From: Flavobacteriales bacterium
GTDB lineage: Bacteria > Bacteroidota > Bacteroidia > Flavobacteriales > Flavobacteriaceae
Length of the DNA stretch: 64,000 nucleotides
NCBI GenBank assembly: GCA_017303755.1
Contig: JAFLBS010000007.1
Span: 92,470-156,469 of the forward strand
Direction of reading: 5' to 3'
Each line of letters opens with the position of its first letter. Positions within the stretch are counted from its first letter, which is position 1. Below the pieces are notes generated by a model. That model worked only from the letters and a program-made list of their open reading frames with translations. It was not told where the DNA came from and searched no databases. Shown in pieces: positions 3,138 to 32,494 of the stretch. Both the position numbers and the translations under genes were made by a program.

Positions 3138-3162
3138 AATAGTATAAATTGTTTGGGATAAT

Positions 3163-3547: not shown

Positions 3548-3559
3548 CGATTCTTCAAA

Positions 3560-3862: not shown

Positions 3863-3887
3863 AGATTGCTTCGTGCCTCGCAATGAC
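3863..3887. repeat. REP-like palindrome
   Basis: AGATTGCTTCGTGCCTCGCAATGAC with an ATTGC/GCAAT stem. Related copy at 4081. Confidence 0.65.
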
Positions 3888-3977
3888 ACAAACAAAAAAG
3901 CCCTCTATCTCGTCGGGAAAACTAGAATAGAGGACTGGACAAACAAAACTAATGTTTCATTTAACTCAACCAAAATT

Positions 3978-7016: not shown

Positions 7017-7027
7017 TCTTAATTTAT

Positions 7028-11022: not shown

Positions 11023-11025
11023 AAT

Positions 11026-11057
11026 AATATGCAGTTTCCTCTTGGAAACTGCATATT
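11026..11057. terminator. Bidirectional terminator between convergent genes
   Basis: Perfect 14-bp inverted repeat AATATGCAGTTTCC-tctt-GGAAACTGCATATT. Confidence 0.85.
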
Positions 11058-11068
11058 TCTTTTACAGC

Positions 11069-11350
11069 TTATGGTACCGGTTTGTAAAGATTTACACTAC
11101 AGGCATTTGCGCCATTTTTCAACCACACTCGTCTTGGAATGTCTTCATTAGACATACATGCTTGACTGCCAGTTGTAAGACAATCCACCGAAACTGGATG
11201 ACAGATTGCAGGCGAAGGATTTTGGATGAATCCTGAGATTAAAACTGTTTTTTTTGATTCTGCAATTTTAGCCTCGTTTGTGCTCACTGCTCCAGCACTT
11301 GCCAATGTGAATGCCAATACTGGCAAGATCACTTTTAAAATGGTTTTCAT
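11069..11350 (-). CDS. Small secreted four-Cys peptide, DUF6520-like
   Basis: 93 aa. Hydrophobic leader (LPVLAFTLASAGAVST), four Cys, C-terminal C-x3-LYK. Confidence 0.75.
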   Translation of the reverse strand: MKTILKVILPVLAFTLASAGAVSTNEAKIAESKKTVLISGFIQNPSPAICHPVSVDCLTTGSQACMSNEDIPRRVWLKNGANACSVNLYKPVP

Positions 11351-11443
11351 GGTAATAGAATTTTAATTATTTTTTTTGACTTACTCTTTTTTACAGGTTT
11401 TCAGTCTCGTTCCTGCTACTGATCAGAATAGATTTTTATGTTG

Positions 11444-12931
11444 TTATTTGTTGTTGAAATGTTTTTTACTCAACTGGTATTTGTGTAAGCGATGTCCAAT
11501 TATTGCGTAGAGATAATTATCTATTACAAACATTTCTTGCAACTTGGTTTTATTAATGTTATAGATGTAGATACTTGACAAGTAGGTGTTTTTTTCGATG
11601 TTGTACACATCCACAATTGAAGCTTGTTTCCACATTTCTTTGGGTTCATATCGTCCGATTAATTTTGAATTTACAAATAGTAAATTATTAGAAACTGCCG
11701 TTAGTTTGTTTACAGTTGGCGGAAGTGATGCTATTTTTCGTTGTCCCGTTTCTTTAATGTGCGCTACTTTGAGCTTGGCTTTGGTTGTTGTGTCTATAGT
11801 ACTTCCGCGACGGATTAGTTTGAGGTTGGTATCGGCTATGATGAATTGATTTCGGTAGTAATAGGTGTAGATGAATTTTTGCGATTGTTGGTCAAACTGC
11901 ATCATGCCATCAGTATCAAAAAAGCCGTCTATTTGCTTTTGTAATAGCTGAGGTGCATAGTTTACTTGTAAACTGTCTTTGAAAGTAAACGTTCCTAAAA
12001 TGTTATAAAGCGTTTTTAATTGTTGTGCCCGAAAGGCTATTTTATCTGGAGCAATTATTTCGGCTTTTGAGAAATAGTAGTTGTTGTCATACATTACAAG
12101 TTTTGCTTTCCAATCGGATATATTTCCTTTATAGATCACTGGTACAGTGCCATCCATCAGATAAAAATAAGGAGGTGCAATTCGGACTTGTACTGAAACG
12201 AAAGGAAAGTTTTCGCGCTCCAGTTGTATTTTATATTGACGCTTGGTTTTTAAAATGGTATCGTAAGCTAGTATGTGTAATGGTGCTTGACTGTCACCGA
12301 AATAAATGGTTTTGCCATCGGTTCCTGCATAGTATTTTGAATTATTTGTTAATTCGGCTTCGGCTGTTTGGGTTGTTGCACCTTGAATAAATCTTCGGAT
12401 GAATGGGTTTTCGCGGTGCATGGTGTTTTCTGAATAGAAGTATAGAATAACAATTACAGCTGAACCGATAATTGCGATAATTGCCAGTTTTAGAACTGTT
12501 TTGGATTTATTCGTTACCATAAATACTGAGGCTATTGCCGCGAGAATTGTAAAAGCGATATTGAAAATTAGGTGTTCTTTCCAGCCCATTTCTTCAAGTA
12601 TTCCTCCGCAGGAACAAGGCACAAATGAGGAATAATTGAGAATAACAACAATATACGCAGTGAACATTAGCATTAATCCAAATGAGGCTAACAAAGCAAT
12701 ATATCTTGATTTTGGAAAAGCCAGTAGTAAAGCGATGAGGAATTCAATTATTAAAACTGAATAGGAAACAAATCCGGTGTATGCGCTTATAAGTGGTGAT
12801 TGACCGAGTTGGGCTTGAAAGTTTTGGAATTCTAATAACTTGCTTAATGCGGAGTAAACAAAAAGTATCATTAGTAAAATACTTATTATTTCTACAAGAA
12901 TTGTTTTAAGATTGGTGACCTTTATTTTCAT
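11444..12931 (-). CDS. MauE/DoxX-family membrane redox protein fused to a large soluble C-terminal domain
   Basis: LFVYSALSKL, five TM segments, PCSCGGILE motif, then ~320 aa of beta-rich soluble sequence. Confidence 0.85.
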   Translation of the reverse strand: MKIKVTNLKTILVEIISILLMILFVYSALSKLLEFQNFQAQLGQSPLISAYTGFVSYSVLIIEFLIALLLAFPKSRYIALLASFGLMLMFTAYIVVILNYSSFVPCSCGGILEEMGWKEHLIFNIAFTILAAIASVFMVTNKSKTVLKLAIIAIIGSAVIVILYFYSENTMHRENPFIRRFIQGATTQTAEAELTNNSKYYAGTDGKTIYFGDSQAPLHILAYDTILKTKRQYKIQLERENFPFVSVQVRIAPPYFYLMDGTVPVIYKGNISDWKAKLVMYDNNYYFSKAEIIAPDKIAFRAQQLKTLYNILGTFTFKDSLQVNYAPQLLQKQIDGFFDTDGMMQFDQQSQKFIYTYYYRNQFIIADTNLKLIRRGSTIDTTTKAKLKVAHIKETGQRKIASLPPTVNKLTAVSNNLLFVNSKLIGRYEPKEMWKQASIVDVYNIEKNTYLSSIYIYNINKTKLQEMFVIDNYLYAIIGHRLHKYQLSKKHFNNK

Positions 12932-13023
12932 AGTTTAATAGAATTGGTAGTGTAAAATTCTATAAATGAAAATGTTATCCTATTTCATTTCGGGAATATC
13001 GGTTTGCAAAATTGGGAATGACT

Positions 13024-13593
13024 TTATTGGCTATCGCTTTCTTTTTCTCTTTTTACTTCGCTTGGCGGAAAATTGTACCGTTTTTTAAATGCTTTATAGA
13101 AATTTGGATAATCATTAAACCCGCATATCAAAGCAATTTCTTTCAATGGAATTGCTGTTTCCTTGATTAGAAAATGCGCTTTCTTCAATCGCTCGTCATT
13201 GTAAAATTGATAGATGCTTGTCTTTACAATATTCCGGAAGCTGTCTTTTAAAGTGAACTCATTAGTGCCAAACATTTTTGAAAGTTCTTTGGTGGTTGGT
13301 AAAGGTTCTTCTAAATGATTTTTGATGTAGTCAAGGACTTTATGAATTAATTCGGCATCGGATTGTTTAGAAGTATTTTGATTTGTACTGTAATCATAAG
13401 GTTGTTTTTTGAACTCGTATTTCGAAATTATATTTTGCATTTTTTCCGCTACTTCATTTAGCATGGTTGCCAATTGGTCCAACTCATCGCCACTACCATT
13501 TGGCTCCACTCGGAACGCTAGATTTCCGGTTGCCATTTCTAAAAGCATCTTATATAAGCTTTTAATTCGCTGTTGGTTTTGTTGATTATCCAT
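13024..13593 (-). CDS. AraC-family regulator with an N-terminal HAMP-like segment
   Basis: EMATGNLAFRVE..DELDQLATMLN (HAMP-like) and C-terminal LKEIALICGFNDYPNFYKAFKKRY. Confidence 0.9.
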   Translation of the reverse strand: MDNQQNQQRIKSLYKMLLEMATGNLAFRVEPNGSGDELDQLATMLNEVAEKMQNIISKYEFKKQPYDYSTNQNTSKQSDAELIHKVLDYIKNHLEEPLPTTKELSKMFGTNEFTLKDSFRNIVKTSIYQFYNDERLKKAHFLIKETAIPLKEIALICGFNDYPNFYKAFKKRYNFPPSEVKREKESDSQ

Positions 13594-13731
13594 TAAGGTA
13601 TATGTGTGAATGATTGCCAGAAAGGAAGTTGGGAAATGCTGACAAAACTATAGCATCGAAGTTTATAAATCAAGAAGTATAGTGTTCCATTCGGGAATTA
13701 AACACCTTGTTTTGGATCTATTTTAAATAAA

Positions 13732-13760
13732 AAAAGCATTGCAGTTAGTGCAATGCTTTT
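13732..13760. terminator. Terminator downstream of the left integrase
   Basis: 12-bp inverted repeat AAAAGCATTGCA-gttag-TGCAATGCTTTT. Confidence 0.8.
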
Positions 13761-13779
13761 AAAATTTTTAAAAGTTACT

Positions 13780-15018
13780 CTATGAACTTTTCGCAACTAG
13801 TTGAGGTGCTAATTTTTGCTTGAGAATAGCCATATCATCACTAACTTTTCTATCAACTACTTTTGCGTAATGTTGCGTGGTTCTGATGTTAGTGTGACCA
13901 AGCATTTTGCTCACGCTTTCTATCGGAACGCCATTTGTAAGCGTTATAGAAGTTGCAAATGAGTGTCGTGCAAGATGAAAAGTTAATTCGGTTTTAATGC
14001 CACAAACATCACCAATTTCTTTTAGATAGCTGTTCATTTTTTGATTGCTTAGAACAGGAAGGATTGTTTCTTCATTTATGCACTTTGGATGCGATGCATA
14101 CTTTGCCATGATTTGTTCTGGAATAGGAAGTAATGGAATTTTTGAACTGGTATCGGTTTTTTGCCTGTTCTTGAAAATCCATTTGTTGCCATCAATACCA
14201 ATTCCAATATGATCAGAAGTTAATTGTTTTACATCGATGTAAGCAAGACCTGTGAAACAACAAAATATGAAAATATCACGCACTTGAATTAATCGTTCAC
14301 AATGAAACTTCTTGTTGTAAATAGTTTCGATTTCGCTCTCAGTTAAAAAATCTCTTTCAACTTCCTTGATTTTTCCCTTATACTTTACAAATGGACTTTC
14401 AATAATCCATCTGTTATCCAAGCAGATTTGAATTATCTTCTTGAAGTTTTTGATGTATTTTACAGTTGTATTGTTACTGCAACCACGTTCAGTTCTCAAG
14501 TAGAAATCGTAATCGGTTATAAAAGCTAAGTCGATATCCTTGATATTAATATCTGAAATATTGAATTTCCATTTCATGAATTCTTTAGTATGGCTAAGTG
14601 AAGTTTTGTAACGTTCTAATGTTCCTGGAGAATATTCTTCAGTCTTTACTAAAGCTTCAATTTGATCATTGTGATTTTGAAAGATGGGTACTAGTGTTCG
14701 CTGTTTTTCAGTTTTGCCTGTCAGCACATTATTAAAAACTTCGGCAGTAATGTCCTTATCAACTGCGATTAGTTTCTTTTCAATACTAGAATTTTTTGCA
14801 ATCAGTGAATCAAGGTGGCTATTTATTGTTCTAGCTTCTTCAGAAGTGCCTTTCATTCTGCCTGCTTCTGTTGACCATTTTGTAGGATCAATGTACTTTC
14901 CGGTGCTTTTGTCAAGGCGTTTTCCGTTGATTGTGGTTCTGTGATAAATTGGAACTAGTCCGTGTACATTGGCTTTCGCTCTTTTTAGATAAAAAAGATT
15001 TGTGATTGTTGCTTCCAT
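13780..15018 (-). CDS. int: Tyrosine integrase (Bacteroidota NBU/CTn type) of the left island
   Basis: Arm-binding N-domain, SAM-like domain, R (FTGLAY family variant), HLARHSFAT, LGH, Y (TQHYAK). Adjacent to the att copy at 15269. Confidence 0.95.
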   Translation of the reverse strand: MEATITNLFYLKRAKANVHGLVPIYHRTTINGKRLDKSTGKYIDPTKWSTEAGRMKGTSEEARTINSHLDSLIAKNSSIEKKLIAVDKDITAEVFNNVLTGKTEKQRTLVPIFQNHNDQIEALVKTEEYSPGTLERYKTSLSHTKEFMKWKFNISDINIKDIDLAFITDYDFYLRTERGCSNNTTVKYIKNFKKIIQICLDNRWIIESPFVKYKGKIKEVERDFLTESEIETIYNKKFHCERLIQVRDIFIFCCFTGLAYIDVKQLTSDHIGIGIDGNKWIFKNRQKTDTSSKIPLLPIPEQIMAKYASHPKCINEETILPVLSNQKMNSYLKEIGDVCGIKTELTFHLARHSFATSITLTNGVPIESVSKMLGHTNIRTTQHYAKVVDRKVSDDMAILKQKLAPQLVAKSS

Positions 15019-18484: not shown

Positions 18485-18904
18485 TTATTTAATATATCTG
18501 TGCAAAATAACTCTCCGCATATCATTGATAAGATTTAGATTTTCATGGAAACGTTTTTCGCTTTGTTCCAAAAGCTTTAAAGTTTCGATATTCTTAACGT
18601 GTTCCTTATGGTCTTTTATCTCTTGGTTGACTTTTATTGAAAATTCTTTTCTAATGTCGTATAAGCTCAAAAATGGGATTACTGAACCTCTAAGGAATTG
18701 ATGCCAAAATTTTGTTTTCCAAAGTGCATAAGCCGTTAAATTGATAGTGTCAAAATCAGATTCGTTTTCAAAAATGATAACAAAACTGTTTGTAAATGGC
18801 TCTATTTGTGGCTTTCCGCTGTTCATTCCTTTGTTAAGCAGGAATAAATGTGGTTTTGTGTAGATAGTTTCTTTTCTGTGGCTTTTAATGATAAATTTCA
18901 GCAT
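18485..18904 (-). CDS. DUF6943-like protein
   Basis: FLLNKGMNSGKP...FTNSFV...LRGSVIPFL pattern, typical of Bacteroidota mobile elements. Confidence 0.7.
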   Translation of the reverse strand: MLKFIIKSHRKETIYTKPHLFLLNKGMNSGKPQIEPFTNSFVIIFENESDFDTINLTAYALWKTKFWHQFLRGSVIPFLSLYDIRKEFSIKVNQEIKDHKEHVKNIETLKLLEQSEKRFHENLNLINDMRRVILHRYIK

Positions 18905-20335: not shown

Positions 20336-21262
20336 CTATAATTGAATATTTTTGATATAAAATCCTAACTCATATTCAATAGAATCACTCTCTAAATCAG
20401 GATCAATATCGATTTCTTTTAATACTAATTTATTATTTCTTGTGTCTGTATAAGAATCAATTGCTTTAGGGATTTCTATACCAGTAATATCTTCAATAAG
20501 AGAAATGTTAACTTGATAAGTGTCTGCATCTTTAAATTGCATAAAAAGTTGGTCTTCTGATTCTAATTCTTCTATAATATGATTTTCTTGAAGCAATTTA
20601 TTCTGGCTCATCATAAACCCGACCCTGTAAAGATTCCCATCTTCTTTTTGAAAAACAACGACTTTCCAAAACAGAGAAGGGATTTGTATTTGTTTACCAT
20701 TTATAGGTGTTACAAAATATGGATTTGAACTTAATAAAACTGGACCTGTAAAAACACAAATACGTAATTCATTTCGCTTTGTTTCAGTATGGAGTATGTA
20801 ATCCTCTAAACTTCGCCATATATCTCTATTTAAATCTTTGTGCTGTGGAACTGCATTCGTATAATAAAATGTTGAGTTAGCAGCATTTAAGGCTATCCCA
20901 GGAGTTTCTCCCCATTGTACGTCTTCCCGTTTAGTCATATGACCTTTGTCAAAATCACTTTTTAGGGCACTGTAGAGTTCTTTACCCATTTGAAACTCTT
21001 TGGATAATCTTGTGTCTTTTCGCCAATTATCCTTTCTTGGAACTTTCTTAAATTGAATTCCATCAATATTTGTTGCTGTATAGAATGGAAACTTGTGAGA
21101 TGCAGATTGTTGTAAACTGTAATTAATGTATTTTATAACTTTATTACCTTCATCATCTGAAACCAAATCATCATTTTGGTCTGAGCTAAGATTAGGTAAA
21201 AGTACCGTTTGGTTTGAGATGAATTGTTCATCATAACCTTGAAATAATTTTTCACTTATCAT
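20336..21262 (-). CDS. DNA/RNA non-specific endonuclease (NucA/EndoG His-Me finger), no signal peptide
   Basis: FDKGHMTKR, TFYYTNAVPQHKDLNRDIW..LEDY, VFTGPV, IPSLFWKVV. Confidence 0.93.
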   Translation of the reverse strand: MISEKLFQGYDEQFISNQTVLLPNLSSDQNDDLVSDDEGNKVIKYINYSLQQSASHKFPFYTATNIDGIQFKKVPRKDNWRKDTRLSKEFQMGKELYSALKSDFDKGHMTKREDVQWGETPGIALNAANSTFYYTNAVPQHKDLNRDIWRSLEDYILHTETKRNELRICVFTGPVLLSSNPYFVTPINGKQIQIPSLFWKVVVFQKEDGNLYRVGFMMSQNKLLQENHIIEELESEDQLFMQFKDADTYQVNISLIEDITGIEIPKAIDSYTDTRNNKLVLKEIDIDPDLESDSIEYELGFYIKNIQL

Positions 21263-21266: not shown

Positions 21267-22298
21267 TCAGTTTTTATGGTTGTCTTTTACAAATTGAATA
21301 ATTTTATTAATGAAAATACCTTCATTCCGTGATTTGATTCCTGTAGGAAGTTCTGGCTCTCCTGGTCTACTTCCACCTCCACTATGATGTAAAGCTACTA
21401 CTTCCCAATCTGAATTAAATACGGGAGAACCGGAAGATCCTTTTAATGTATCTGTGAGATATTGAACAACTCGGCTGTCTGTATGGGTTACGATGTTATG
21501 ATAAAGAGAAATTTGTTTCATTTCTCCTCCAGGATGCTGAATAATATTAACGAAATCATTTGGTTTTATTTCAACATCATTTAGTTCTATATATCCGTAT
21601 GAGTCTAATTCTCCTTGTTCATGAATGAGTTTACAAACTATTGTGTCATATTCATTTACAGTAGACCAATATATGGGTTTATTTTCATCAATATGGAAGC
21701 CTTTAGAAGGAATGCTGTTACCGTTTATATCCAATTCATAATCAAAAATAATTTTAGTTTTAGCAATGCGATTTTCATCTTTGATAACATGATAATTAGT
21801 AATAAAAAACAACTCATCGATGCCCTTCACCTTGAAGAGAAATCCGGTACCAACATCAAAACGATTGCTACCTACCTTAATTTCTACTTTTCCAACAGCT
21901 TTGCTTTTCTGAACTCCTTTTGCTAAAAAGTTAACAGGAAGCAAAGTACTACGCCCCATTGTCAAAACTTCTAGCGTTTCTTCAGCGACATCTTGCCATT
22001 TGGAAACTTTATCAATATCCGGGCTTAAAGAATAATCAATTTCTTTTGTAGCCAAAGCCGATTTTAAAAATGGATTATCAGGATAGGTGTCTAATACAGA
22101 TTTTACTAATTCATCAACTTTACTGTTCTTGTCTGCTTCACTTAGAACATTGCTCCAAACGTCCATAGCGTTACCACTTTCATTTATATGTTGTGGTTTC
22201 AGCCCTGCTGCTTTTACATATTTTGTGATTCCATCCTTATTAGGAACCAAGTCACTTAAAACATCATTTAATTGCGTAAGTTTTTTTGTCCAAGCCAT
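21267..22298 (-). CDS. EAD1-trypsin-like (V8-type) serine protease
   Basis: N-terminal ~80-aa EAD1-like domain. Catalytic triad TNYHVI, YDTIV, GSSGSPVF. Confidence 0.92.
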   Translation of the reverse strand: MAWTKKLTQLNDVLSDLVPNKDGITKYVKAAGLKPQHINESGNAMDVWSNVLSEADKNSKVDELVKSVLDTYPDNPFLKSALATKEIDYSLSPDIDKVSKWQDVAEETLEVLTMGRSTLLPVNFLAKGVQKSKAVGKVEIKVGSNRFDVGTGFLFKVKGIDELFFITNYHVIKDENRIAKTKIIFDYELDINGNSIPSKGFHIDENKPIYWSTVNEYDTIVCKLIHEQGELDSYGYIELNDVEIKPNDFVNIIQHPGGEMKQISLYHNIVTHTDSRVVQYLTDTLKGSSGSPVFNSDWEVVALHHSGGGSRPGEPELPTGIKSRNEGIFINKIIQFVKDNHKN

Positions 22299-22299: not shown

Positions 22300-23445
22300 T
22301 TATATAAATATTTGTGGATAATCTACTGTTACTCTATCAACAAGGTTTTCTACCATTTCTTTTTTGATACACAAATCAATAAGTTGGGAAGACATATTGA
22401 CCGCCGAGTCTTCTACCAATAAAGAAACATTCACGCCAATTTTTTTTGCCAAAGTTCTAACTGATACACTGGATTGATAATATTGCGGAAGCTTTATCAT
22501 TAACTCTTCTACCGATTGCTCCTTGAAATATGCTCCGCGAATTCTCTCGTATAGTAAGTTTAGTTTTGCCTTTTCAGAAGTACTCGATAATTCTGATGGG
22601 CATAAATACCTAGATTCAAAAATTGGATTTACTATATTGGGATTTAAAAGGTATTCACCGTTTCGTCCTTCTTTCTTTGCATATTCTTTAAAGAAATGTT
22701 CAATTTCACTATTAACATTTTTCACTTTACTATCTGCCGTTACATATACAAAGTCATAAAAAAGACTATCTTGATATTCGTATTCCATTAAAGAAAAAGG
22801 ATGATAAGCGACAGGATAATTTCTTTCTAATACTTGGATTTTATCAATAGAATCAATTACCAAATATCCTCTGGGTATATCTTTGGTTGAAGCAAATTTT
22901 GATGCCCAGTAAATATCCATTGGTAGCCATTTAGCACCTCTAATCATAACGCAATCTCCTTGCTTGATTTTCAAATGATCGTAAACTTCAGGGAAGCATA
23001 ACAAAGGAATCCCAGTAGATGCATTACAACCAGCACTAACTGATAATAATACTTTTCTTTCATCAGTCGGTGGTAATAATAATGTACCTACACCTCCCAT
23101 CACTTTTTTAGATTTCCCAGGAGGATAAAACTCTATCCACTGCTTACTTTGTAAAGCAATATCTTCCATCTTATGCTGTCTTATTTGTTCTGATGATGGA
23201 GTCCAATAAAGTCCAGGAACACGAGCAACCCAATCGGAAACTACAAAATCGTATAAGTCAATTTTTTGGTTCCAATATTTAGTGGGATCAGCAATTACGT
23301 TTCTCCAAAACTCTTCATCATTAGAGAACCAAAAGTTTTCATAATTTGAAATATTTTCATTTAGAGAGTTTACTTCTTCAGCTAAAGCATAATTCTCTAT
23401 AGTTTCAATGAGTTTTGTTCCTTTGTATAATTCTTTTAGGCCCAT
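22300..23445 (-). CDS. Unknown ~305-aa domain with a C-terminal EAD1-like domain
   Basis: The last ~70 aa align by eye with the trypsin N-domain (L...YY...V..LAK.IG...LV..V..DYP). Confidence 0.7.
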   Translation of the reverse strand: MGLKELYKGTKLIETIENYALAEEVNSLNENISNYENFWFSNDEEFWRNVIADPTKYWNQKIDLYDFVVSDWVARVPGLYWTPSSEQIRQHKMEDIALQSKQWIEFYPPGKSKKVMGGVGTLLLPPTDERKVLLSVSAGCNASTGIPLLCFPEVYDHLKIKQGDCVMIRGAKWLPMDIYWASKFASTKDIPRGYLVIDSIDKIQVLERNYPVAYHPFSLMEYEYQDSLFYDFVYVTADSKVKNVNSEIEHFFKEYAKKEGRNGEYLLNPNIVNPIFESRYLCPSELSSTSEKAKLNLLYERIRGAYFKEQSVEELMIKLPQYYQSSVSVRTLAKKIGVNVSLLVEDSAVNMSSQLIDLCIKKEMVENLVDRVTVDYPQIFI

Positions 23446-23451: not shown

Positions 23452-25989
23452 TTATGTTTTTATGAAGTTTTTTCTTAAATCATATATGATTTTAAACTTC
23501 TGGTTTTCCCCATATTGTTTTTTTACTTCTTTAAGTAAATTGTTCATTGTTATTTCTTTGAAGTGCTCCTTGCGTAATTTATAAAACACATTACTCCAAA
23601 TTTCGCTTGATGTTCCTTTTGCGAGTAGATCAGATTCTTTTCCTCCTGCCTTTTTCCAAATTGTTGTTAATGAAGTCCCATTTGGATATAGCTCAACAAT
23701 TAATTCTTCTGCACTTTGCCACCATTCATTTGTTGGAATACTAACTGAGGATAAAATACCTGAAAATGATAAAAGTCCTTTGGTTATAAAGTCAAGAAGG
23801 TGGTGACATTCTGCTAATGCAAATTTCCAATTATTGTTTTTGGAAGCTTTGGAATTAATTATATAAGTTGAATTGGAAAATCGTCTTTTTGCTATCAGTT
23901 GCCCCAATTGAGTCGCGTCAATAGAACTAATTTGTCCTGAAAAGTTATTCAAATAATCTCGAAGATTACTGTCGCTCAACTGAGAAAATCTATCAAATAC
24001 TTGAATTACAGATTTAAGATTATTTCTATTGAAATACAAGAAATCAGCGATGCCCTTTCTACTTATGTGATCCAACAAAACAGCATCATTAGGTATCTCA
24101 ATGGTTGAGTTTTTACTGAGTTGTTCAAGTAATTCAGCAGACGTTTTGATTAAGAAATTGTCTTTTGCAGATGAAGGAAATTTACCCCATAAAATAGTCC
24201 TATTAGGATACGTTAGTAGATTTCCAAATTCGGAGTGGGAAATTTTATTAATAAGTCTTTCAGAAACCACATTGCCACCAATAAGATGGTCAAACAATTT
24301 ATGTATTTCTTTTTGAGGCTCTTTTAAACCAGAATCCACTTGATTTCCATTTTCAATTGCCTCAGCCCAAATTAGCTGCCAGTTGTCATTTAAAACATCT
24401 ATTCTCTTCAGATTCTTAGATGAATAATGGCAGATTTTACCGGCAATTTTAATCATTCGAGATTCACCAGTATCAATAGCATAATCAACAATTGAGTTAT
24501 CATCTTTTCCTGTTACTATCGCCTCAACAGCTTCAAAATAATTTTCATCCTGATCAATTTTGAATAGTTCTGTTAGAGCAGTACCTAATTCAAATTGCCT
24601 ATCCAATAGATATGCGTATAACCTTAGCCAATTATTGCTAATAGAGAATTCTTGTAGTTCTTCAATAAGTTCCTTTGAAATTTTCTTAGGTAACTTTTCA
24701 ATAAAACAGCTTTCAGCATTTTTGGATTTGTCGATAAAAGATTTAATTATGGACAGAATGAATGGTGATTCCATTAACCAAGTGTAAACAATAGCAATCT
24801 TGGAAGCTTGAGCGGTTCCTAAGTAGGATTCAAGCTCTTGTGTTATTACTTTATCCCACCAATTCGGATTACTCTTTTTTACCTGCTCAAAAAATGAGGT
24901 ATATCCAACTGATTTATTTTCAAGTGAAAAAATATATTTCTTCATCCAGCCTATTAAAGCTGTTGATAAAGTTTTTTTTGAGTTCTTGAAGCTCTCCGTT
25001 TTGAAATTCCTTAATATATTTAGGTCAGAAAAGTTTGCCGATTCTGCTAATTGGACAATCTTATTTAATAATAGTTGCTTAAAATCTGTACCTTGTTTGT
25101 CCGAATGAGCATATTCTGCTACAATATGTGAAAGGGTATTTAGCTTTTTAAGATCTCTTACGCTGTCTAAGTGTTCAAAAGTATCAATACCTTTCGCTAT
25201 TAAGGCAATATCTTCTCGTGAAAGAGACTTTGATTCAATCGCTTTCTCGAAATTGCTAATACGTTGTTGAACGGACACATCACCAATTAATAATTGTTCT
25301 ATTAACTCGGTAGGTTCATGGTTGTCGTTCTTTCCAATAACAAAGAAGTCCGATCGGAGAAACTTGCTTTGAACACTTTCAGGTACAGCAATTAGGCTTA
25401 TGTGATTAGTTTCTTTATGGTCATTATTGAATGCAATACCAAACTGAAAATTTGGTCGTTCAATAACGGTTAGACGTTTCCACAACTCTATAACCGCTGT
25501 GTCAAAACCTTCCTGCCCAATCCATATTAATGTATTCTTATGGCTGTTTATGTTAATATAGCCATTAATAAGTTTGTTGAATTTGCCCCGAATAGCATCC
25601 GGTATACCGACGGCATCATTTGAGGACATTTCTATTGAAATCGGTTCCAGATCCGTACTCTTATTTATTTCTTGGGGTAATAGACTTATAATTTGCACTA
25701 TATTATCTATTTTTATTATTTCTTCTTTCTGAATCATCAGAACATGAGAATATTTCCTGCCTCTTCTTACATCAGGAGCTGTATCCTCAAATGTTTTCAT
25801 AATCAAAAAATAGTCTCCTTCCGAAAATCCGCGAATAGCAGGCTCCCAATTAACTCCACTAGTTTGATCTTGTAAATCCGTCCTAAAGGCAATGCTCTTA
25901 GCGATATTAACATCCGGCAAGGTAGTTTTTATTAAACCCCATGCTTTATTCACTTCTCCGCAAATGGATTGATGTATTATTACTTTCAC
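23452..25989 (-). CDS. GAP1-type (GTPase-associated protein 1) with a C-terminal EAD1-like domain
   Basis: N-terminal IHQSICGE..D...G..YFLIMKTF.D...RRGR..SHVL (GAP1-N1-like), long helical middle, C-terminal ELYPNG...IWKKAGG...IWSNV. Confidence 0.75.
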   Translation of the reverse strand: MKVIIHQSICGEVNKAWGLIKTTLPDVNIAKSIAFRTDLQDQTSGVNWEPAIRGFSEGDYFLIMKTFEDTAPDVRRGRKYSHVLMIQKEEIIKIDNIVQIISLLPQEINKSTDLEPISIEMSSNDAVGIPDAIRGKFNKLINGYININSHKNTLIWIGQEGFDTAVIELWKRLTVIERPNFQFGIAFNNDHKETNHISLIAVPESVQSKFLRSDFFVIGKNDNHEPTELIEQLLIGDVSVQQRISNFEKAIESKSLSREDIALIAKGIDTFEHLDSVRDLKKLNTLSHIVAEYAHSDKQGTDFKQLLLNKIVQLAESANFSDLNILRNFKTESFKNSKKTLSTALIGWMKKYIFSLENKSVGYTSFFEQVKKSNPNWWDKVITQELESYLGTAQASKIAIVYTWLMESPFILSIIKSFIDKSKNAESCFIEKLPKKISKELIEELQEFSISNNWLRLYAYLLDRQFELGTALTELFKIDQDENYFEAVEAIVTGKDDNSIVDYAIDTGESRMIKIAGKICHYSSKNLKRIDVLNDNWQLIWAEAIENGNQVDSGLKEPQKEIHKLFDHLIGGNVVSERLINKISHSEFGNLLTYPNRTILWGKFPSSAKDNFLIKTSAELLEQLSKNSTIEIPNDAVLLDHISRKGIADFLYFNRNNLKSVIQVFDRFSQLSDSNLRDYLNNFSGQISSIDATQLGQLIAKRRFSNSTYIINSKASKNNNWKFALAECHHLLDFITKGLLSFSGILSSVSIPTNEWWQSAEELIVELYPNGTSLTTIWKKAGGKESDLLAKGTSSEIWSNVFYKLRKEHFKEITMNNLLKEVKKQYGENQKFKIIYDLRKNFIKT

Positions 25990-26816
25990 AATAATGCCTG
26001 CTCTATTAGTTCTGTAATGTCATTTGTTTGGACGCCATCAGGCAATACTAAATATCCAAATTCTTCTGGTCCCTCAATCTGATATTTTTCTTTGTTCTCC
26101 GGTGTAGTCAGAGAAAACCCTTGAGCAGAAAGACCAACTAAGTTCAGATAATTTTCATCCCAGTTAGACTCCAAGAAGTTTAATAAAAGTGGTAATTTAG
26201 ATTGCAATACATTATAAGGCTTTTCTTCTGTATTCATTTCATCCCAGCAGGTTAAGACAATGGTCAACTTCGGCTTATCATTTACCTTATGGTAGTCTGT
26301 TCCTTTAGCATGTAAAAGGATTTGTAATAATTCGATAAAAAAGCTTTGATCCGATATTTTATACTCGGTTTCAGAAACCGGCTCTTTCGCATTTTTATGA
26401 TGTTGTTCAGAATAGGTAACATCACTGATATCTAAAGGCTTGTTTACATTATTTAACCTGATAAATAAAATCCAGCTGTTACTTTCCTGTATGGAAGCTG
26501 TCCATTCTTTATTTAACTCCCGATTTTCAACAATACTTAAAACCTGTTCTCCTCCATATTCGGGACATTTTAAATCAACCTGCTTTTCAGCTACCTGAAT
26601 AGGTAAGTAAAACTTCACACTTTTTTCAGATGGAGTTGTCTGTGGTTCTTCTCCTGATGCTAATGCTTCTCTTGCCCCGGAAATAGGAGATAGATCATCC
26701 ACTGATTTATAAAGCTTCAGCTTACTCTTATTTTTCTGCAATTTTGAGTAAAATTGTGAAAGGAATACTGTCTTGGATGAATGTGGTTTTCCGATAAGTA
26801 ATATAGATGTACCCAT
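25986..26816 (-). CDS. TRAFAC-clade GTPase domain protein, degenerate motifs
   Basis: G1 GKPHSSKT, G3 EYGGE, G4 TCWDE. Confidence 0.8.
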   Translation of the reverse strand: MGTSILLIGKPHSSKTVFLSQFYSKLQKNKSKLKLYKSVDDLSPISGAREALASGEEPQTTPSEKSVKFYLPIQVAEKQVDLKCPEYGGEQVLSIVENRELNKEWTASIQESNSWILFIRLNNVNKPLDISDVTYSEQHHKNAKEPVSETEYKISDQSFFIELLQILLHAKGTDYHKVNDKPKLTIVLTCWDEMNTEEKPYNVLQSKLPLLLNFLESNWDENYLNLVGLSAQGFSLTTPENKEKYQIEGPEEFGYLVLPDGVQTNDITELIEQALL

Positions 26817-27776
26817 TTATGTGCTTTTATAATTTAAGAAAATGTCATTTACCGTGCTATCATTTTCAATTAGAATTTCAGACTTGCTTACAGTAAACAC
26901 TCTGGAAAGTAGCCAGTCCAGTACAGCAATGTTGTTCTTATGAACTAATACATCAGGATCATCTGAAGAAAAATTACTGATATCTATCTCTTTATAGTTC
27001 TCAAAAAGTTCTTTCAACTCTCCTTGTAGCTTTTCTCGAATTACTGCATGCACTTCTTCTTTTTTATCACTTTTTGACCAAACAGCAATAACGGGTCTGT
27101 TTCTTATATCGTGCCTTAACATTTGTGCCATATCCACGATGTCAGTCTTTGCCAGAGCCTTTCTATTAATCAAATCATCACAATCAATAAAGAGTATAAA
27201 AGCATTTGAATGTTCATAAATCCATCTGGCATTCTCCGCGTTTTCATCATTACGATTTTTTGACCAAATAGAAAAAACCTCACCAGATGCATCAGATATT
27301 AAAATGTCTTTTAATTTTTTTTTCTGATTTCGTAATGCCAAATGCAATAAGCGGATGTATTGAGCGGGAGTAGGATCAGGAAATGTGACACCTTCTTGTT
27401 GAACCCTCAATTTTTGATATAATTCATCCCAAGCATTTATTGTTTGCGTACCGCAAAAGTCAAATTCTTTAAGTTTTATACCTCTAAGAAGTAATGTAAA
27501 AAGCATGGCGAGATATGTTGTTTTCCCTGCATCAGCTTTTCCTATTACACCGATGATTAGAGGGGTATTTCTATAGGTTATTTTGGGCAATTCATCTATA
27601 GTCAAAGCGTCCCCTGTCCATGGCAAATCGGATTTTTTCTCTTTTTTTGGAGCACTTTTGGTTTTGGATTGCGGTGCATTTGACTTCATCCAAAACTCAC
27701 ATTCCGTAGGCTTTTCTTTTCCTTCATGGCAACTGATTGGTGCAGCACAGTCAGGATTTGAACACTTTCCTGTCAT
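26817..27776 (-). CDS. TRAFAC-clade GTPase with a Cys-rich N-terminus
   Basis: G1 GKADAGKT, G2 PDPT, G3 DASGE, G4 SKSD. N-terminal C-x4-C-x5-CH-x8-C. Confidence 0.85.
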   Translation of the reverse strand: MTGKCSNPDCAAPISCHEGKEKPTECEFWMKSNAPQSKTKSAPKKEKKSDLPWTGDALTIDELPKITYRNTPLIIGVIGKADAGKTTYLAMLFTLLLRGIKLKEFDFCGTQTINAWDELYQKLRVQQEGVTFPDPTPAQYIRLLHLALRNQKKKLKDILISDASGEVFSIWSKNRNDENAENARWIYEHSNAFILFIDCDDLINRKALAKTDIVDMAQMLRHDIRNRPVIAVWSKSDKKEEVHAVIREKLQGELKELFENYKEIDISNFSSDDPDVLVHKNNIAVLDWLLSRVFTVSKSEILIENDSTVNDIFLNYKST

Positions 27777-27777
27777 A

Positions 27778-29025
27778 CTACTTTGTATTTAGAATTTTTA
27801 CTAATTGAAAGTCATGAAATAACCAAGTGGTCAACTCATTTGGAGCTAGTTTTATATTTAATCGTATCCCTACAAACTCTTCAAATTGAGCTAACTGATT
27901 TTTATTCCATATGAGCCCATTGATGAAGTTTAGCAATGTTGACTTTCCTGTCAATGCTTCAGTCTCGGGAAATATGGGTTTCAATTCCTCTGTATGCTCT
28001 TGAATAGATTTGAGAAAGTCTTCAAGGGTTAGTTCTTCCTTCGTACTTTCTTTTAATCCTTTATAAGTTTCTTTCAGAAAATAATCAACGCTTTTTGGGT
28101 AGATCACTGGGATAAAGATTGAATAATCATAAGCCAAGACTATTCCCAAAATACTTTTATCCAGTTCATCATAACTTCTATCTGTAGAGGCTGAATACCC
28201 AGCTTCTTTCCACCACAACAGTTCTGATCTTAGCTGTAATGATTTATTTCTATTCGAAACTTCCTTTTGTACTTGTTCTAATGCTTTATTTAAACTGTTT
28301 TGAATTGTGTTTTTATTCTCATTTACAACAGAAGCAATAGCTCTTAAGGAAGGATCTATTGCGCTTTTTATTCCTTGTGCAGCTTTGGGAGCAAATTGAT
28401 ATGACCAGTGTTGCCCTTGATTAGGCCAATATTGGTTAGGAGAATCGAAATTCGCAGTTCCCTGTGCATTGTGTTGTCCTGACGCATCTTCCAAGTGTTT
28501 TTGAAGCGTCTCTTTATTAATTAGGTAGGCTGAGATTTCCTTAAGTTCAAAACTAATTTTTGATAAGGAGTCACTGCCTGACAATACCCATTCTCTGTTA
28601 GCTTTTTGATTGATATCATTGCCCAACCTGGAAATAAACTCTAATATAATTTCTTTTTCTTTCCCAATCAGCTTATGATATTGAACAATGTTTCTGCTGG
28701 CAAACCAAATAAATAGGGAATGATTAACATCTTCGCTTATGCAGCTTAAAGCCTCCAACATAACCGCCCTAATATAGGTTAGAGGGGTGTCTTTTGCATT
28801 GGTAGCAAATGTGCTCCAATTCTTTATTATGACATCTTTGACTTCTACTATGTCAGCATTGTCAATAGAAGTATCAGTGTCAATTGCCGATAGTGTATAT
28901 GACACTATTTTAGCTTTACTTTTTGCCAATTTTTTAGAGATATCGTCGGCAGACTTTTTTAATTTTTTGAAATCGCCATCATCTGTTAGTGAGAGAAGAT
29001 TAGCGTTTAAGTAATTTTGTAGCAT
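27778..29025 (-). CDS. All-helical protein, GASH-like (GTPase-associated system)
   Basis: 415 aa, helical, ELLWWKEAGYS motif, immediately upstream of the GTPase pair. Confidence 0.7.
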   Translation of the reverse strand: MLQNYLNANLLSLTDDGDFKKLKKSADDISKKLAKSKAKIVSYTLSAIDTDTSIDNADIVEVKDVIIKNWSTFATNAKDTPLTYIRAVMLEALSCISEDVNHSLFIWFASRNIVQYHKLIGKEKEIILEFISRLGNDINQKANREWVLSGSDSLSKISFELKEISAYLINKETLQKHLEDASGQHNAQGTANFDSPNQYWPNQGQHWSYQFAPKAAQGIKSAIDPSLRAIASVVNENKNTIQNSLNKALEQVQKEVSNRNKSLQLRSELLWWKEAGYSASTDRSYDELDKSILGIVLAYDYSIFIPVIYPKSVDYFLKETYKGLKESTKEELTLEDFLKSIQEHTEELKPIFPETEALTGKSTLLNFINGLIWNKNQLAQFEEFVGIRLNIKLAPNELTTWLFHDFQLVKILNTK

Positions 29026-29034: not shown

Positions 29035-31404
29035 TTAGTTTAATTGGTTATCTAAATTATTATTACTCTCAATTCTAACTTCTTCTCTAAGCTTAATATT
29101 GGAATGCAAGAAGTTTCTTTCGGCTAAAAGTCTTGATACTTCATTATATACCTGCTTTTGACCTTTTGTATCTCTAATGGTTACGATAAGCGTAAAATCT
29201 TGATTTAATTCTTCACCATCTTGTATGGCTAATGTTTCTGCAAAATCTCTATAAGTTCCTTTGATTTTAGCATACCATTTTCTGTTTCCTGCCAAACTAT
29301 CACGTTGTCTAGCATCTTTCATTTCGCTTAGATTAACCGAATATTTTTTTACTGGTTGGTATTTTTTACCATAATTGAGCAGCACTCTTTCACGAGCATA
29401 TTCGCTTTCGGTATCTTTGATATGTGCACTTTTGTAATTTGAATCAAGTAGAACATTTTGAGTGTCGTCTGGACCAATTTCATTGAGAATATTAGCTTTG
29501 GTTGTGTCTCGTTCTTTTATATTTTCATAAGTACCAAACATTAACTCTAAATTTGATTGACAATATTCTGCACCTTGCTTTTCTCTCAATACTGGTTGGC
29601 CGACTAACGTTATTTTAATTTCTCCATAGAAAAAGCCATCATCATCAATTAAACTTTCGGGAAAAGGAAATTCTAATATTTCAATAAATTCTCCACGAGT
29701 AATATTCTCTTGCAATATCAATGTAATTTCATGAGGATCATTGTAAATAATTTCATCAGCTGAATCAGGAATACCAAATCCCATTTGATTTACTCTTTCA
29801 CTTATAGGAAGACTTATTCCTGTTGGATATTTTGCAGAATGAATGGCTAAAGCTTTTAAAAGAGTAGGATTAAAAGTTTCATTAATTTTAAAATTTAATT
29901 CCGACAATAATGAAGTTACTCTTGGTGTAGCAAAACTAGTCCCAATAATTTTTACTGAATTTCCATTGTGAGCAATAGCGTTTACACCATTTTCAATTCT
30001 TCTTCCATCTTTAATACCTGCATTTCCACCAAATGATACTATATCTGGTTTGATGCTATTAGCTGGACCTGGACCAATTCTAGTAAATGGTGATGGATGA
30101 TTTATATCCGCAATATCATGAGTGTTTTTTGAATGAGCGACTGAGCCAACCACTAATGAGCGAACTGAATCGCCCGACCTTGCTACTCTGCTTTTGGGAT
30201 ATCCTTTTTCAAAGTTTCTGCAATTACCAGCCGATTTGCAAATAATTACATCATTAGTAATCTGAATATCGTCTAATGCCTTACCAAAATCTGAAAAATC
30301 ATTAATGTCTGATTCAGCAGCAGTACCTAATGACAAATTCCAAATTTTGATATGATTATTCTCCTTTATGGCTTCTCTAATATTTTCTACTAATTCATCT
30401 TCATCTATTGATTCTTGTTTTTGATCTGGGAATACTGTGGCATCAAAAATTTTGCACCCTGAATTTCCTGTCCAATTTTCACCTTGTAATTGATCTCCAT
30501 AAAGAATTATACTCGATACGCAAGAACCGTGCATTGGGTCAATTAACTCGTCCGGATATGAGGAAAATTTATCATCCAATAGCCAAGGTGCTAAATATGG
30601 ATTTTTAGATACTCCTGTATCTAAAACCCCAATAGTTGGATATTCGACGCCTGCAGTAGGTGTTTTTATATCAACAGTATTCTCAGATTCCATACTATCT
30701 GTTTCTACTTGATATTTTGGCATAAAAGTTATAGACTCTAATGCTTCAAAGTCAGAAATACTATCTAAAACTGCTTGCGAGGCATTTTTTATTTTAAATA
30801 TTATTAGTCCTGGAGAATAATTTACTTCTTTTACTTCTATGCCAAATTCATTGCAATATTTGATAAAAGCAATTTTGACAGCATTATTAACTTCGTAATT
30901 CAGAAAGTCAATTAATGAGATTTTGACTGTTTGGTTTTCTTCAATATCTACAATAAATGGTTTGAATACTTCTATTGATTCGATAGCAGAAATACCACGT
31001 GGATTTTTAAGATAATTGGATATATTGTTTTTTATTTGTAAACCTTCTTCAATACTGTCAACCTTAACAATTGCGCTATTTGAATCAAGAAAACCAATAA
31101 TATTGTTTTTGGTTACTTTACCATTGAAGATTTTCTGAATGTCTTTTCTATGTGATTTAGCAATTGCATTGTCATCAATATCAATTTTAAGTGTAGCGGG
31201 AATAAAACTTCTTGAAGTATTACGTTTTTGAAATACCTCAATTAATTCATTAATAGGTTCCATGAAGCTTTCAGCTCTTTCTGCAAGTAATTGTCCAGAC
31301 AACTCCCATTTAGGTATATTATCATTACCACCACCTTCAACTCTACGGTCGTCTATTTTTTGCCTTTTTTGAAAAAGCTTAATTGGTAAATTCTTCTTTG
31401 CCAT
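29035..31404 (-). CDS. ietS: S8 subtilisin-like protease, IetS-like
   Basis: VLDTG, HGSCVSS, GTSFATP triad. No signal peptide. Coupled to an AAA ATPase. Confidence 0.85.
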   Translation of the reverse strand: MAKKNLPIKLFQKRQKIDDRRVEGGGNDNIPKWELSGQLLAERAESFMEPINELIEVFQKRNTSRSFIPATLKIDIDDNAIAKSHRKDIQKIFNGKVTKNNIIGFLDSNSAIVKVDSIEEGLQIKNNISNYLKNPRGISAIESIEVFKPFIVDIEENQTVKISLIDFLNYEVNNAVKIAFIKYCNEFGIEVKEVNYSPGLIIFKIKNASQAVLDSISDFEALESITFMPKYQVETDSMESENTVDIKTPTAGVEYPTIGVLDTGVSKNPYLAPWLLDDKFSSYPDELIDPMHGSCVSSIILYGDQLQGENWTGNSGCKIFDATVFPDQKQESIDEDELVENIREAIKENNHIKIWNLSLGTAAESDINDFSDFGKALDDIQITNDVIICKSAGNCRNFEKGYPKSRVARSGDSVRSLVVGSVAHSKNTHDIADINHPSPFTRIGPGPANSIKPDIVSFGGNAGIKDGRRIENGVNAIAHNGNSVKIIGTSFATPRVTSLLSELNFKINETFNPTLLKALAIHSAKYPTGISLPISERVNQMGFGIPDSADEIIYNDPHEITLILQENITRGEFIEILEFPFPESLIDDDGFFYGEIKITLVGQPVLREKQGAEYCQSNLELMFGTYENIKERDTTKANILNEIGPDDTQNVLLDSNYKSAHIKDTESEYARERVLLNYGKKYQPVKKYSVNLSEMKDARQRDSLAGNRKWYAKIKGTYRDFAETLAIQDGEELNQDFTLIVTIRDTKGQKQVYNEVSRLLAERNFLHSNIKLREEVRIESNNNLDNQLN

Positions 31405-31405: not shown

Positions 31406-32494
31406 TTATTCTACATTTAAAGCGTTCCTAACTTGTCTAATTGAAATATCTAAATAACTTGCTATTTGTTTCTGTGGTATATGACTTTCGTTTAAAAACT
31501 TAATCATTTCCTCTGGAAGAAATCTGTTGTTGTTTTTGTATTTAAAATATTCAGAAAAGATATCTTCATATTCAAAAACTGATTTTTTTATGATTGAATT
31601 ATAATATGCACTATTAATGATTTTAATAATCTCAGAATGTGATAAATTGCTCATATAAGTTTTAACCATTTCAAATTTTTTATCATCTGTCGCTAAATCA
31701 GAACCAATTTTATCAAAATAGTTCTCTACAAGATTTTTTATTTCATCAGAATTTGGTTTGTTTACATTTACGACTTTTTCAAATCTTCTCCAAATTGCAC
31801 TATCTAGCAATTGTTCGTGATTAGTTGCCGCAATCAATATCCCTGTTTCTAGAAATTCATCTATATTTTGTAAAAGACTATTAATTACCCTTTTTAATTC
31901 TCCGGTTTCTTGATTATCGTCTCTCGCTTTTGCTATAGCATCAAACTCATCTAAGAACAAAATGCAAGGCTTACTTTTTGCGTAATCGAATAATTTCCTA
32001 ATATTCTTTGCTGTACTACCTAATAGGGAAGAAATTAAAGAATCAAAACGCGCTACTACAATTGGAATATCTAGCTCTTTAGCAATATGTTTGGCTAATG
32101 TTGTCTTTCCACAACCTGGAGGGCCATAAAGTAAAAGAGAAAGATTAATGTCTAAACCTTTACTTTTAATTTCATTTTTAGAATTTACTAATGAAATAAA
32201 ATTATTTATTGGCTCAACAATACCCTCTGAAACTATTATATCAAACTTTATGTCTTGAGGCAATATAATATCAGCAATATTTAGCCTTGTGTCATTATCT
32301 ACAGGCGCATCAAATAATTGATCTTTAAAAACAGGCATGCCTTTAGCTCCTTGGATTGTTTTCAAAATTTTGTCAGCTAATTTACTATCACCATCATCTC
32401 TTAATTTTTTTGCTAAATGATTGGAGTAATTAATTACCTTTTTATGATCATTATTCAATCCACCTTCAATTATTTTTATTAGTTCTGTATACAT
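31406..32494 (-). CDS. ietA: AAA+ ATPase, IetA-like
   Basis: GPPGCGKT, LFLDEFD, ATNH, AIWRRF. Directly upstream of the S8 protease. Confidence 0.88.
   Translation of the reverse strand: MYTELIKIIEGGLNNDHKKVINYSNHLAKKLRDDGDSKLADKILKTIQGAKGMPVFKDQLFDAPVDNDTRLNIADIILPQDIKFDIIVSEGIVEPINNFISLVNSKNEIKSKGLDINLSLLLYGPPGCGKTTLAKHIAKELDIPIVVARFDSLISSLLGSTAKNIRKLFDYAKSKPCILFLDEFDAIAKARDDNQETGELKRVINSLLQNIDEFLETGILIAATNHEQLLDSAIWRRFEKVVNVNKPNSDEIKNLVENYFDKIGSDLATDDKKFEMVKTYMSNLSHSEIIKIINSAYYNSIIKKSVFEYEDIFSEYFKYKNNNRFLPEEMIKFLNESHIPQKQIASYLDISIRQVRNALNVE

Follow-up and report, generated by a model that had tools for sequence, protein, structure and literature searches.

A large unnamed protein family with an EAD-type tail is the constant genomic partner of EAD1-trypsins and may sense or regulate for them

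What does a protein of no recognised family do between the GAP1 protein and the trypsin-like protease of a bacterial GTPase operon? The question is raised by a 64-kb stretch of DNA from a Flavobacteriales bacterium (contig JAFLBS010000007.1), here called the window, in which a minus-strand open reading frame (ORF) runs from ATG to stop at exactly 22300-23445 and encodes 381 amino acids (aa). This protein is referred to below as the target. It is the fifth gene in a dense cluster of co-oriented genes (Pfam annotation), six nucleotides after the GAP1 stop and one nucleotide before the start of an EAD1-bearing trypsin. An initial annotation, made from the sequence alone, had described this ORF and its place between GAP1 and trypsin, both of which agree with the gene itself and with Pfam calls on its neighbours. 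The same annotation considered the protein an orphan, with an unrecognised N-terminal part and a C-terminal EAD1-like domain, and suggested that it could be a new sensor, adaptor or effector connected to the surrounding system through EAD1. The comparisons reported here place the target in a large family whose constant partner is the protease, and tentatively favour a sensory or regulatory role.

The target is not an isolated protein, and the term orphan is wrong. It has 181 matches among 90%-identity clusters, the best 120 of which are essentially all full length (approximately 380 aa) and 51-96% identical to it. Where homologs are named, they are called 'hypothetical protein'. A profile search run exhaustively over 1.84 billion cluster representatives recovered 546 proteins at E<=1e-3, with 102 at E<=1e-30. 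The homologous loci are found in Bacteroidota, Chloroflexota, Acidobacteriota, Deinococcales, Planctomycetota and Calditrichia, as well as in alpha-, beta- and gamma-proteobacteria (Pseudomonadota), a myxobacterium and a metagenome-assembled genome (MAG) of a member of the Parachlamydiaceae. The target is a member of a large unnamed bacterial family which combines a new domain of about 290 residues, the N-domain, with a small helical docking tail. All motifs first quoted from the N-domain are present: SDWVARVPGLYW (aa 70-81), GGVGTL (117-122), GIPLL (145-149) and YHPFS (214-218). That it resembles no recognised family also holds: nothing in Pfam matches it at E<=10, nor does anything in PADLOC or NCBIfam, and a profile search of PDB sequences is negative as well. 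It is likewise absent from the list of GAP1-system effectors and from the ten protease-associated families surveyed in 2025. From sequence comparison, the family can be described as an unnamed domain family inside a known framework, with a function that can be proposed only indirectly.

The C-terminal output of the family varies. In at least 50 clusters the N-domain is joined to a TIR domain (PF13676) that looks active, in proteins of about 510 aa (L052; P0280-P0329; L057-L059); they are annotated only as 'TIR domain-containing protein', and one is from Aquabacterium humicola. Three of them lie on long contigs, each as a solo gene without conserved neighbours. In other branches the N-domain is followed by a C-terminal helical extension of uncharacterised type or by hardly any tail; they are found in defence-island-like surroundings without proteases. 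These distant protease-less relatives share no upstream partner; four upstream proteins were mutually unrelated.

Genomic context was counted in 45 genome loci, with the proviso that several loci without an adjacent trypsin end at a contig edge. An EAD1-trypsin directly follows the target homolog in 31 of the 45, separated mostly by -4 to +13 nucleotides. A trypsin lies within two genes in three more, and CHAT proteases are present instead in another three, so that adjacency to a protease gene is near-obligate in the family. The partner proteases retain the H170/D218/S289 triad (32/32) and D283 (31/32). In about 20 loci the homolog and trypsin occur without GASH, DO-GTPases or GAP1; the target is therefore not a specific component of the GAP1-N1 DO-GTPase system. 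It is the constant partner of the protease, not of GAP1. The initial proposal is supported in its unnamed domain and in a tail of the EAD1/EAD7 superfamily, with the refinement that the protein is not peculiar to this GAP1 system: it neighbours an EAD-matched protease in GTPase, nSTAND1, NucA-peptidase and NTPase-less settings.

The surroundings of the pair differ between lineages. In Spirosoma and in one Bacteroidetes MAG the genes after it encode EAD1-SIR2, EAD1-TIR, SIR2-TIR and an nSTAND1 nucleoside triphosphatase (NTPase). Trypsin_2 fused to Endonuclease_NS, Lipase_3, PLD or S8 precedes it in alpha- and gamma-proteobacteria, a planctomycete and a Chitinophagales MAG, and on a Sinorhizobium meliloti plasmid it lies downstream of PAS, CHAT and S8 genes. 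Some relatives adjoin nSTAND1 or NB-ARC-TPR genes. In Acidobacteria the target homolog, the EAD1-trypsin and an EAD1-bearing multi-transmembrane protein form a cluster without an NTPase; proteobacterial loci made up of a Trypsin-NucA fusion, the target homolog and the EAD1-trypsin likewise lack an NTPase hub. The gene for the acidobacterial multi-transmembrane protein directly follows the pair and matches only EAD1 in Pfam; its product is likely a membrane effector. It was seen in two Acidobacteria (L030 11245-12585; L039 12092-13450), where EAD1 is joined to a multi-transmembrane region of about 350 aa and the two proteins are 37% identical. A further EAD1 protein occurs in alphaproteobacteria (L044 3237-4529; L047 12170-13555; 57% identical), between the EAD1-trypsin and a second NucA protein; its all-helical region of about 380 aa has no Pfam match.

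The target, trypsin and NucA genes travel as a cassette which is exchanged independently of the GTPase core. In a Fluviicola MAG (L018) the GTPase core is only 27-34% identical to that of the window, whereas the target, trypsin and NucA are 53%, 61% and 62% identical. Flavobacterium subsaxonicum (L010) has the cassette beside a 120-aa EAD1-bearing remnant of GAP1. In a Paludibacter MAG (L004/L015, 12207-13790) a 527-aa DUF900 protein of alpha/beta-hydrolase type replaces NucA in an otherwise identical operon, which makes the last gene of the operon a variable effector slot.

The description of the C-terminus as EAD1-like stands at the level of profiles, and not at that of a direct Pfam match. 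Neither the target nor its isolated tail matches Pfam EAD1 (PF19955) at E<=10, no match is seen in 24 close homologs at E<=1, and the tail finds neither of the two flanking EAD1s in pairwise BLAST. When the tails of the family were aligned by hhalign with the N-terminal extensions of the neighbouring trypsins, 24 of 25 of which are Pfam EAD1, the probability was 96.9% (E 1.5e-10, 69 columns); a second run of the tails against trypsin EAD1s gave 96.0% (E 4.2e-9). Controls (a reversed profile and 20 column shuffles) scored no higher than 13.5, as compared with 57 for the real comparison. The relation of tail to EAD1 is thus visible only by profile methods. When a hidden Markov model (HMM) was built from trypsin EAD1s and iterated over the loci, it picked up both aa 311-380 of the target and aa 756-837 of GAP1. 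Among 32 diverse tails, six match Pfam EAD1 (best E 1.2e-4) and five match EAD7 (best E 6e-11); distant relatives exceed the gathering score of EAD7, and in one case that of EAD1 too. EAD1, EAD6 and EAD7 are distantly related to each other (PMC7159879). In the AlphaFold2 (AF2) model the tail has helices at aa 309-322, 326-335, 348-361 and 365-375 (predicted local distance difference test, pLDDT, 80-97) and is, as expected of an EAD1, a small, non-enzymatic, all-alpha terminal domain, with four to five helices over aa 309-375. The comparison of the tail with the EAD1 of trypsin gives an E value of 6e-6; that with the EAD1 of GAP1 is marginal (E 1.2e-3 over only 27 columns, or E 0.006). By these alignments, the tail is a divergent member of the EAD1/EAD7 group, nearer to the EAD1 of trypsin than to that of GAP1.

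It should be noted that the tail also has weak Pfam matches to HTH_58 (E 0.08) and BCD1 (E 0.015-0.15), which might suggest that the C-terminus is a DNA-binding helix-turn-helix, or that the gene is non-functional. Both matches fall far under their gathering scores, and the BCD1 match is spurious. Homologs are conserved over their full length in more than 120 clusters and are syntenic across phyla. Given also the hhalign controls and the EAD1 and EAD7 matches of diverse tails, a mis-read ORF or tail is so improbable that it can be regarded as effectively refuted.

The type of EAD co-varies between the target's relatives and the adjacent protease. In Chloroflexia, the gene directly upstream of an EAD7-tailed relative encodes a CHAT protease which itself carries EAD7 at its C-terminus, and a further relative with an EAD7 tail has an EAD7 protein encoded after it. 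In the window the target is flanked on both sides by EAD1 copies, in GAP1 and in trypsin, and EAD1 copies on a core component and adjacent genes are arranged in the same way in 14 GAP1-type loci. From the co-variation of EAD types, a physical EAD-EAD interaction of the target may be suspected.

Such an interaction could also be inhibitory. The target might act as a safety catch or decoy which keeps the EAD1-trypsin inactive through EAD-EAD binding, perhaps as a pseudosubstrate, until the EAD1 of a hub competes for it or a phage factor binds or destroys it. The one-to-one pairing with the protease would suit this arrangement, being tight and, at a gap of one nucleotide in the window, probably translationally coupled, as would the greater similarity of the tail to trypsin's EAD1 than to that of GAP1. 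There is also a precedent: removal of a CARD-like domain from a Lysobacter NLR made the system toxic, and Death-fold domains can auto-repress (PMC10312443). However, a safety catch leaves the N-domain-TIR and N-domain-only architectures unexplained, and the target does not resemble any known protease inhibitor. We consider it improbable.

The anatomy of the N-domain gives further indications of function. From an alignment of 93 sequences, the AF2 model reached a pLDDT of 92.9 and a predicted template-modelling score (pTM) of 0.88; a shallower alignment of 24 sequences gave a pLDDT of only 66.7. The protein begins with a helix in which E14, N18 and Y19 are invariant in one alignment (A1). Across the family, 83% of sequences have D or E at the E14 position, and 92% have an aromatic residue at that of Y19. 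The linker behind it varies in length and sequence and falls below a pLDDT of 50 at aa 23-27; it is a candidate flexible or cleavable segment. The envelope of the N-domain HMM stops at about aa 290 in all relatives. Conservation mapping over the 93 sequences highlights one block, which reads W72-x2-R75-x-P77-G78-L79, R89, P108-x2-K111-S112 and G117-G118-x-G120. In this block R75 is conserved in 95% of sequences, R89 in 93%, K111 and S/T112 in 97% each, and G78, G118 and G120 in 100%. The positions invariant throughout the family are chiefly Gly, Pro and aromatic (W47, G78, G118, G120, P147). The conserved polar residues of the family are basic or Ser/Thr (R75, R89, K111, S/T112, K/R192), with E221 and D231 conserved only in 80-86%. 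No hydrolase-type triad is found among the conserved N-domain residues of this alignment, and the target has no NTPase motifs. In the model, K111-S112 lies at the N-terminus of a helix following a strand; the R75/R89/K111/S112 basic cluster is likely a putative anion- or phosphate-binding site. A PD-(D/E)xK nuclease (E221...D231...D238-S-K240) was considered and dropped: D238 and K240 are not conserved beyond the close family, and the K240 column has G, K and S in 16, 15 and 11 of the 93 sequences.

The middle of the protein had been described as beta-rich and possibly of the OB (oligonucleotide/oligosaccharide-binding) type. The model has a beta-beta-beta-alpha-beta-beta order at aa 121-207, which fits the OB topology of a closed five-stranded barrel with a helix between strands 3 and 4, and all leading Foldseek matches against PDB are OB folds, from two independent models (best E 0.019 and 0.033). 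The top match is the Rfa1 N-OB (E 0.019, target template-modelling (TM) score 0.42); others are Teb1, POT1, RPA70, SSB, PriB and MCM10. The alignments cover about 85-100 columns with target-normalised TM scores of 0.40-0.46 and identities of 10-14%. None of the matches to the target models reaches E<=0.001. Assigned from the topology of the model, an OB-like barrel is plausible but unproven. OB-fold domains (RPA70N/Rfa1 N-OB, POT1, Teb1, SSB, MCM10) are the sole recurrent structural matches; the target differs from them in that the barrel sits inside a larger domain of about 290 aa, with the most conserved block (aa 70-123) outside the barrel. The other parts of the model are an alpha/beta region, a beta-hairpin and long helix (aa 216-260), and an extended conserved segment which runs into the tail. 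Foldseek against viral predicted structures returned nothing informative, and tblastn against phage genomes gave no match.

These features bear on whether the target is itself the toxic product. As a protease-activated latent effector, or pro-toxin, it would be tethered to trypsin by its EAD tail, and cleavage, for example in the variable linker or at the junction of N-domain and EAD, would release the activity of the N-domain. MBL pro-nucleases, alpha/beta-hydrolase zymogens, Pepco, EACC1 and gasdermins would be the analogues. The gene is immediately upstream of the protease and co-oriented with it, and its partners are serine (trypsin) or cysteine (CHAT) proteases, like those of Pepco and MBL (PMC12642450; PMC12799240). 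EAD1-linked domains were mainly classed as recruited effectors by Kaur et al. (PMC7159879). The high motif conservation of the N-domain would suit an effector, and the hypervariable, low-confidence linker after a conserved helix could be a gate. However, the N-domain has no conserved catalytic-type residues or membrane-active features, and neither linker nor junction has a conserved cleavage motif. The linker in the window contains no Lys or Arg, although the protease keeps the trypsin-like Asp six residues before the catalytic Ser. At the junction, 'SPxELR' is conserved in non-Bacteroidota relatives and its Arg is lost in the target subfamily. The loci usually already hold effectors (NucA, TIR, SIR2, PLD, lipase, transmembrane proteins), the solo N-domain-TIR fusions would be left without a sensor, and the family lies outside the ten protease-associated effector families of PMC12642450 and matches no Pfam model. 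We regard a pro-toxin as the main rival reading, less likely than not.

The interpretation that we prefer, while stopping short of calling it probable, is that the target serves a protease-based anti-phage system of Death-fold-like (EAD) type as its ligand-sensing or regulatory subunit, docking to the EAD1-trypsin and controlling it. The N-domain, with its OB-like barrel and Arg/Arg/Lys-Ser cluster, would bind a trigger, most likely a phosphate-bearing one (nucleic acid or nucleotide). The EAD1-like tail would engage in homotypic pairing, with the EAD1 of the neighbouring trypsin and, in the window operon, with that of GAP1 as well. This pairing would license the trypsin, which would then activate the downstream NucA nuclease. 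Protease activation of the terminal effector has been predicted for NucA-peptidase systems by Kaur et al. (PMC7159879), and Tuck et al. and Evans et al. showed the same activation logic for other protease-effector pairs (PMC12799240; PMC12642450).

A sensor or regulator is favoured because, in loci without an NTPase, every component but the target is a protease or an effector, and because the solo N-domain-TIR fusions need a sensor domain if they follow the usual sensor-plus-effector layout. It was this large TIR-fused clade that inclined the choice between sensor, adaptor and effector. The absence of catalytic-type conserved residues, the basic and Ser/Thr character of the conserved polar ones and the resemblance to ligand-binding OB folds point the same way, as do the constant protease pairing, the co-variation of EADs and the mobility of the cassette. 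The target also holds the place of the NLR-like ATPase in CARD-NLR/LypABC systems (PMC13236601; PMC10312443).

Several points weigh against a sensor. Loci with GAP1, nSTAND1 or NB-ARC-TPR proteins already have a dedicated sensor or switch, beside which a second sensor looks redundant; EAD hubs for loci seemingly without them could be encoded at another site in the genome. The N-domain is well conserved (mean 52% identity, with invariant motifs across phyla), which one would sooner expect of enzymes or effectors than of phage sensors, which evolve fast. Position of the gene immediately upstream of the protease is a hallmark of protease-activated effectors such as MBL, Pepco and EACC1 (PMC12642450; PMC12799240). 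Finally, the OB similarity is below significance (best E 0.019). A wider proposal, possible but held with considerable doubt, is that the N-domain defines a widespread class of non-NTPase immune sensors, which respond to a phosphate-bearing trigger, give their output via an EAD-linked protease (trypsin- or caspase-like) or a fused TIR, and replace NLR/STAND proteins.

The operon around the target belongs to the GAP1-N1 DO-GTPase systems, a known type that has been predicted by computation only. Pfam finds GASH, a pair of DO-GTPase paralogs and a GAP1-N1 protein in one operon, and GAP1, with its C-terminal EAD1, is the EAD1-bearing hub of the GTPase system. The same components are described in PMC7159879, and the downstream EAD1 or EAD1-like genes of the window correspond to that paper's 'EAD coupling' configuration. 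The order of the GASH, DO-GTPase and GAP1 genes is kept in loci L001-L021 and L033. Effectors listed for these systems are calcineurin-like phosphoesterase, PNPase, TIR, SLATT, trypsin, caspase, alpha/beta-hydrolase and DNA glycosylase (PMC7159879); the N-domain of the target is not on the list, and the Pfam models derived from that work do not match it. A search of one supplement of Kaur et al. for homolog accessions gave no relevant entry (PMC7159879). A full-text literature search on the names of the GAP1/DO-GTPase system returned only the 2020 paper (Kaur, Burroughs, Iyer & Aravind, eLife).

Three other types of system resemble the target-trypsin pair. Protease-associated modules (Trypco1/Trypco2, which are Pepco; MBL, EACC1 and others) have the same near-obligate trypsin- or caspase-like protease neighbour and many upstream sensors. 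The families compared were Pepco/Trypco1-2, MBL, alpha/beta-hydrolase, EACC1, bGSDM, CATASP, MPE, CalpT, Csx30 and PCaspase (PMC12642450; PMC12799240). The target matches none of the ten effector families in Pfam, PADLOC or NCBIfam. It is about three times larger than Pepco (117 aa), it has an EAD adaptor of its own which is matched to the EAD of the protease, and its family includes TIR fusions without any protease.

CARD-NLR/LypABC systems (Wein et al. 2023, PMC10312443; Banks et al. 2026, PMC13236601) likewise have a trypsin-like protease whose N-terminus carries a small helical domain of Death-fold type, partners in which trypsin is fused to a nuclease, a lipase or PLD, and a third protein with a C-terminal helical adaptor. 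They differ in having a STAND/NLR ATPase where the loci described here have the non-NTPase target or, in the window, the GTPase/GAP1 core. No STAND NTPase is found in the window operon by Pfam, and the operon is not a CARD-NLR system in the sense of a STAND/NLR ATPase with a CARD-trypsin. Profile searches of PDB sequences with EAD1 alignments gave no match linking Pfam EAD1 to the crystallised bacterial CARD-like domains. The NucA-peptidase system ('System 3', PMC7159879) shares the core of trypsin and Endonuclease_NS, an EAD1 on one trypsin paralog and other EAD1 proteins in the operon. The alphaproteobacterial loci L043-L047 and the last two genes of the window operon fit this description. 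However, as EAD1 partners the paper names lysozyme and papain-like peptidases and not the target domain, and the module in the window is attached to a GTPase system instead.

The features of the target and its operon are collected in Table 1. The closest genome relative is L008, a Bacteroidetes MAG, in which the target is 96% identical; GASH, both GTPases, the target and NucA are 94-98% identical between the two. In windows of 30 aa, identity drops to 63-80% in the middle of GAP1 and to 43-73% in the protease domain of trypsin, which points to recombination or diversifying selection at these hot spots.

Table 1. Features of the target protein and of the operon that encodes it, in positions of the window
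Feature	Position	Strand	Basis or remark
Target gene, 381 aa	22300-23445	-	New N-domain + EAD1-like tail; no Pfam match
N-terminal helix, aa 1-20	23386-23445	-	Conserved IETxENY motif; model helix 3-20
Linker, aa 21-36	23338-23385	-	Hypervariable; low model confidence
Core of new domain, aa 37-290	22576-23337	-	
Most conserved block, aa 70-123	23077-23238	-	
Putative OB-like beta-barrel segment, aa 121-207	22825-23085	-	Beta-beta-beta-alpha-beta-beta; model secondary structure
C-terminal EAD1-like helical domain, aa 309-380	22306-22521	-	hhalign + iterated HMM
GASH	27778-29025	-	Pfam 287.1 bits
DO-GTPase2	26817-27776	-	Pfam 195 bits
DO-GTPase1	25986-26816	-	Pfam 263.8 bits
GTPase core (DO-GTPase1 + DO-GTPase2 + GASH)	25986-29025	-	
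GAP1	23452-25989	-	GAP1-N1 at N-terminus, Pfam 74.7 bits
EAD1 of GAP1, aa 753-836	23482-23733	-	Pfam 35.4 bits
EAD1-trypsin (serine protease), partner gene	21267-22298	-	
EAD1 of trypsin, aa 6-81	22056-22283	-	Pfam 41.3 bits
Trypsin_2 of EAD1-trypsin, aa 150-303	21390-21851	-	Pfam 70.8 bits
NucA-type nuclease (Endonuclease_NS), terminal effector	20336-21262	-	Pfam 141.9 bits

Directly upstream of the GTPase operon, also on the minus strand, the window contains a complete IetA/IetS defence pair: IetA (AAA ATPase, 31406-32494) and IetS (S8 subtilase, 29035-31404), with PADLOC scores of 449 and 1119 bits. Together with the GTPase operon it makes up a defence island. A tyrosine integrase (13780-15018), a DUF6943 gene (18485-18904), an RteC regulator (35366-36214) and a tRNA gene (61201-61285) are also present; a DUF6943 gene is found near the Paludibacter homolog locus as well. 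RteC regulators are typical of Bacteroidota conjugative transposons. The combination of integrase, DUF6943, RteC and tRNA suggests that an integrative mobile element carries the island. The base composition, about 28% GC at 1-4000, changes to 35-40% GC with strong positive GC skew at 4001-14000, a shift which coincides with three large plus-strand ORFs (3873-11022).

Protease-gated cell death and Death-fold (CARD/EAD) adaptors are emerging as a logic shared by bacterial and animal immunity. The family described here is the most constant partner of the EAD1-trypsins and has in addition a separate TIR-fusion clade. No experimental studies of GAP1/DO-GTPase, nSTAND1 or NucA-peptidase systems were found in the literature; the role of the target, if worked out, would fill a missing node in all three. 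The family could also give annotation pipelines a new marker of defence islands. If the wider proposal is true, a non-NTPase sensor would take the place of NLR/STAND proteins in protease-based bacterial cell-death cascades.

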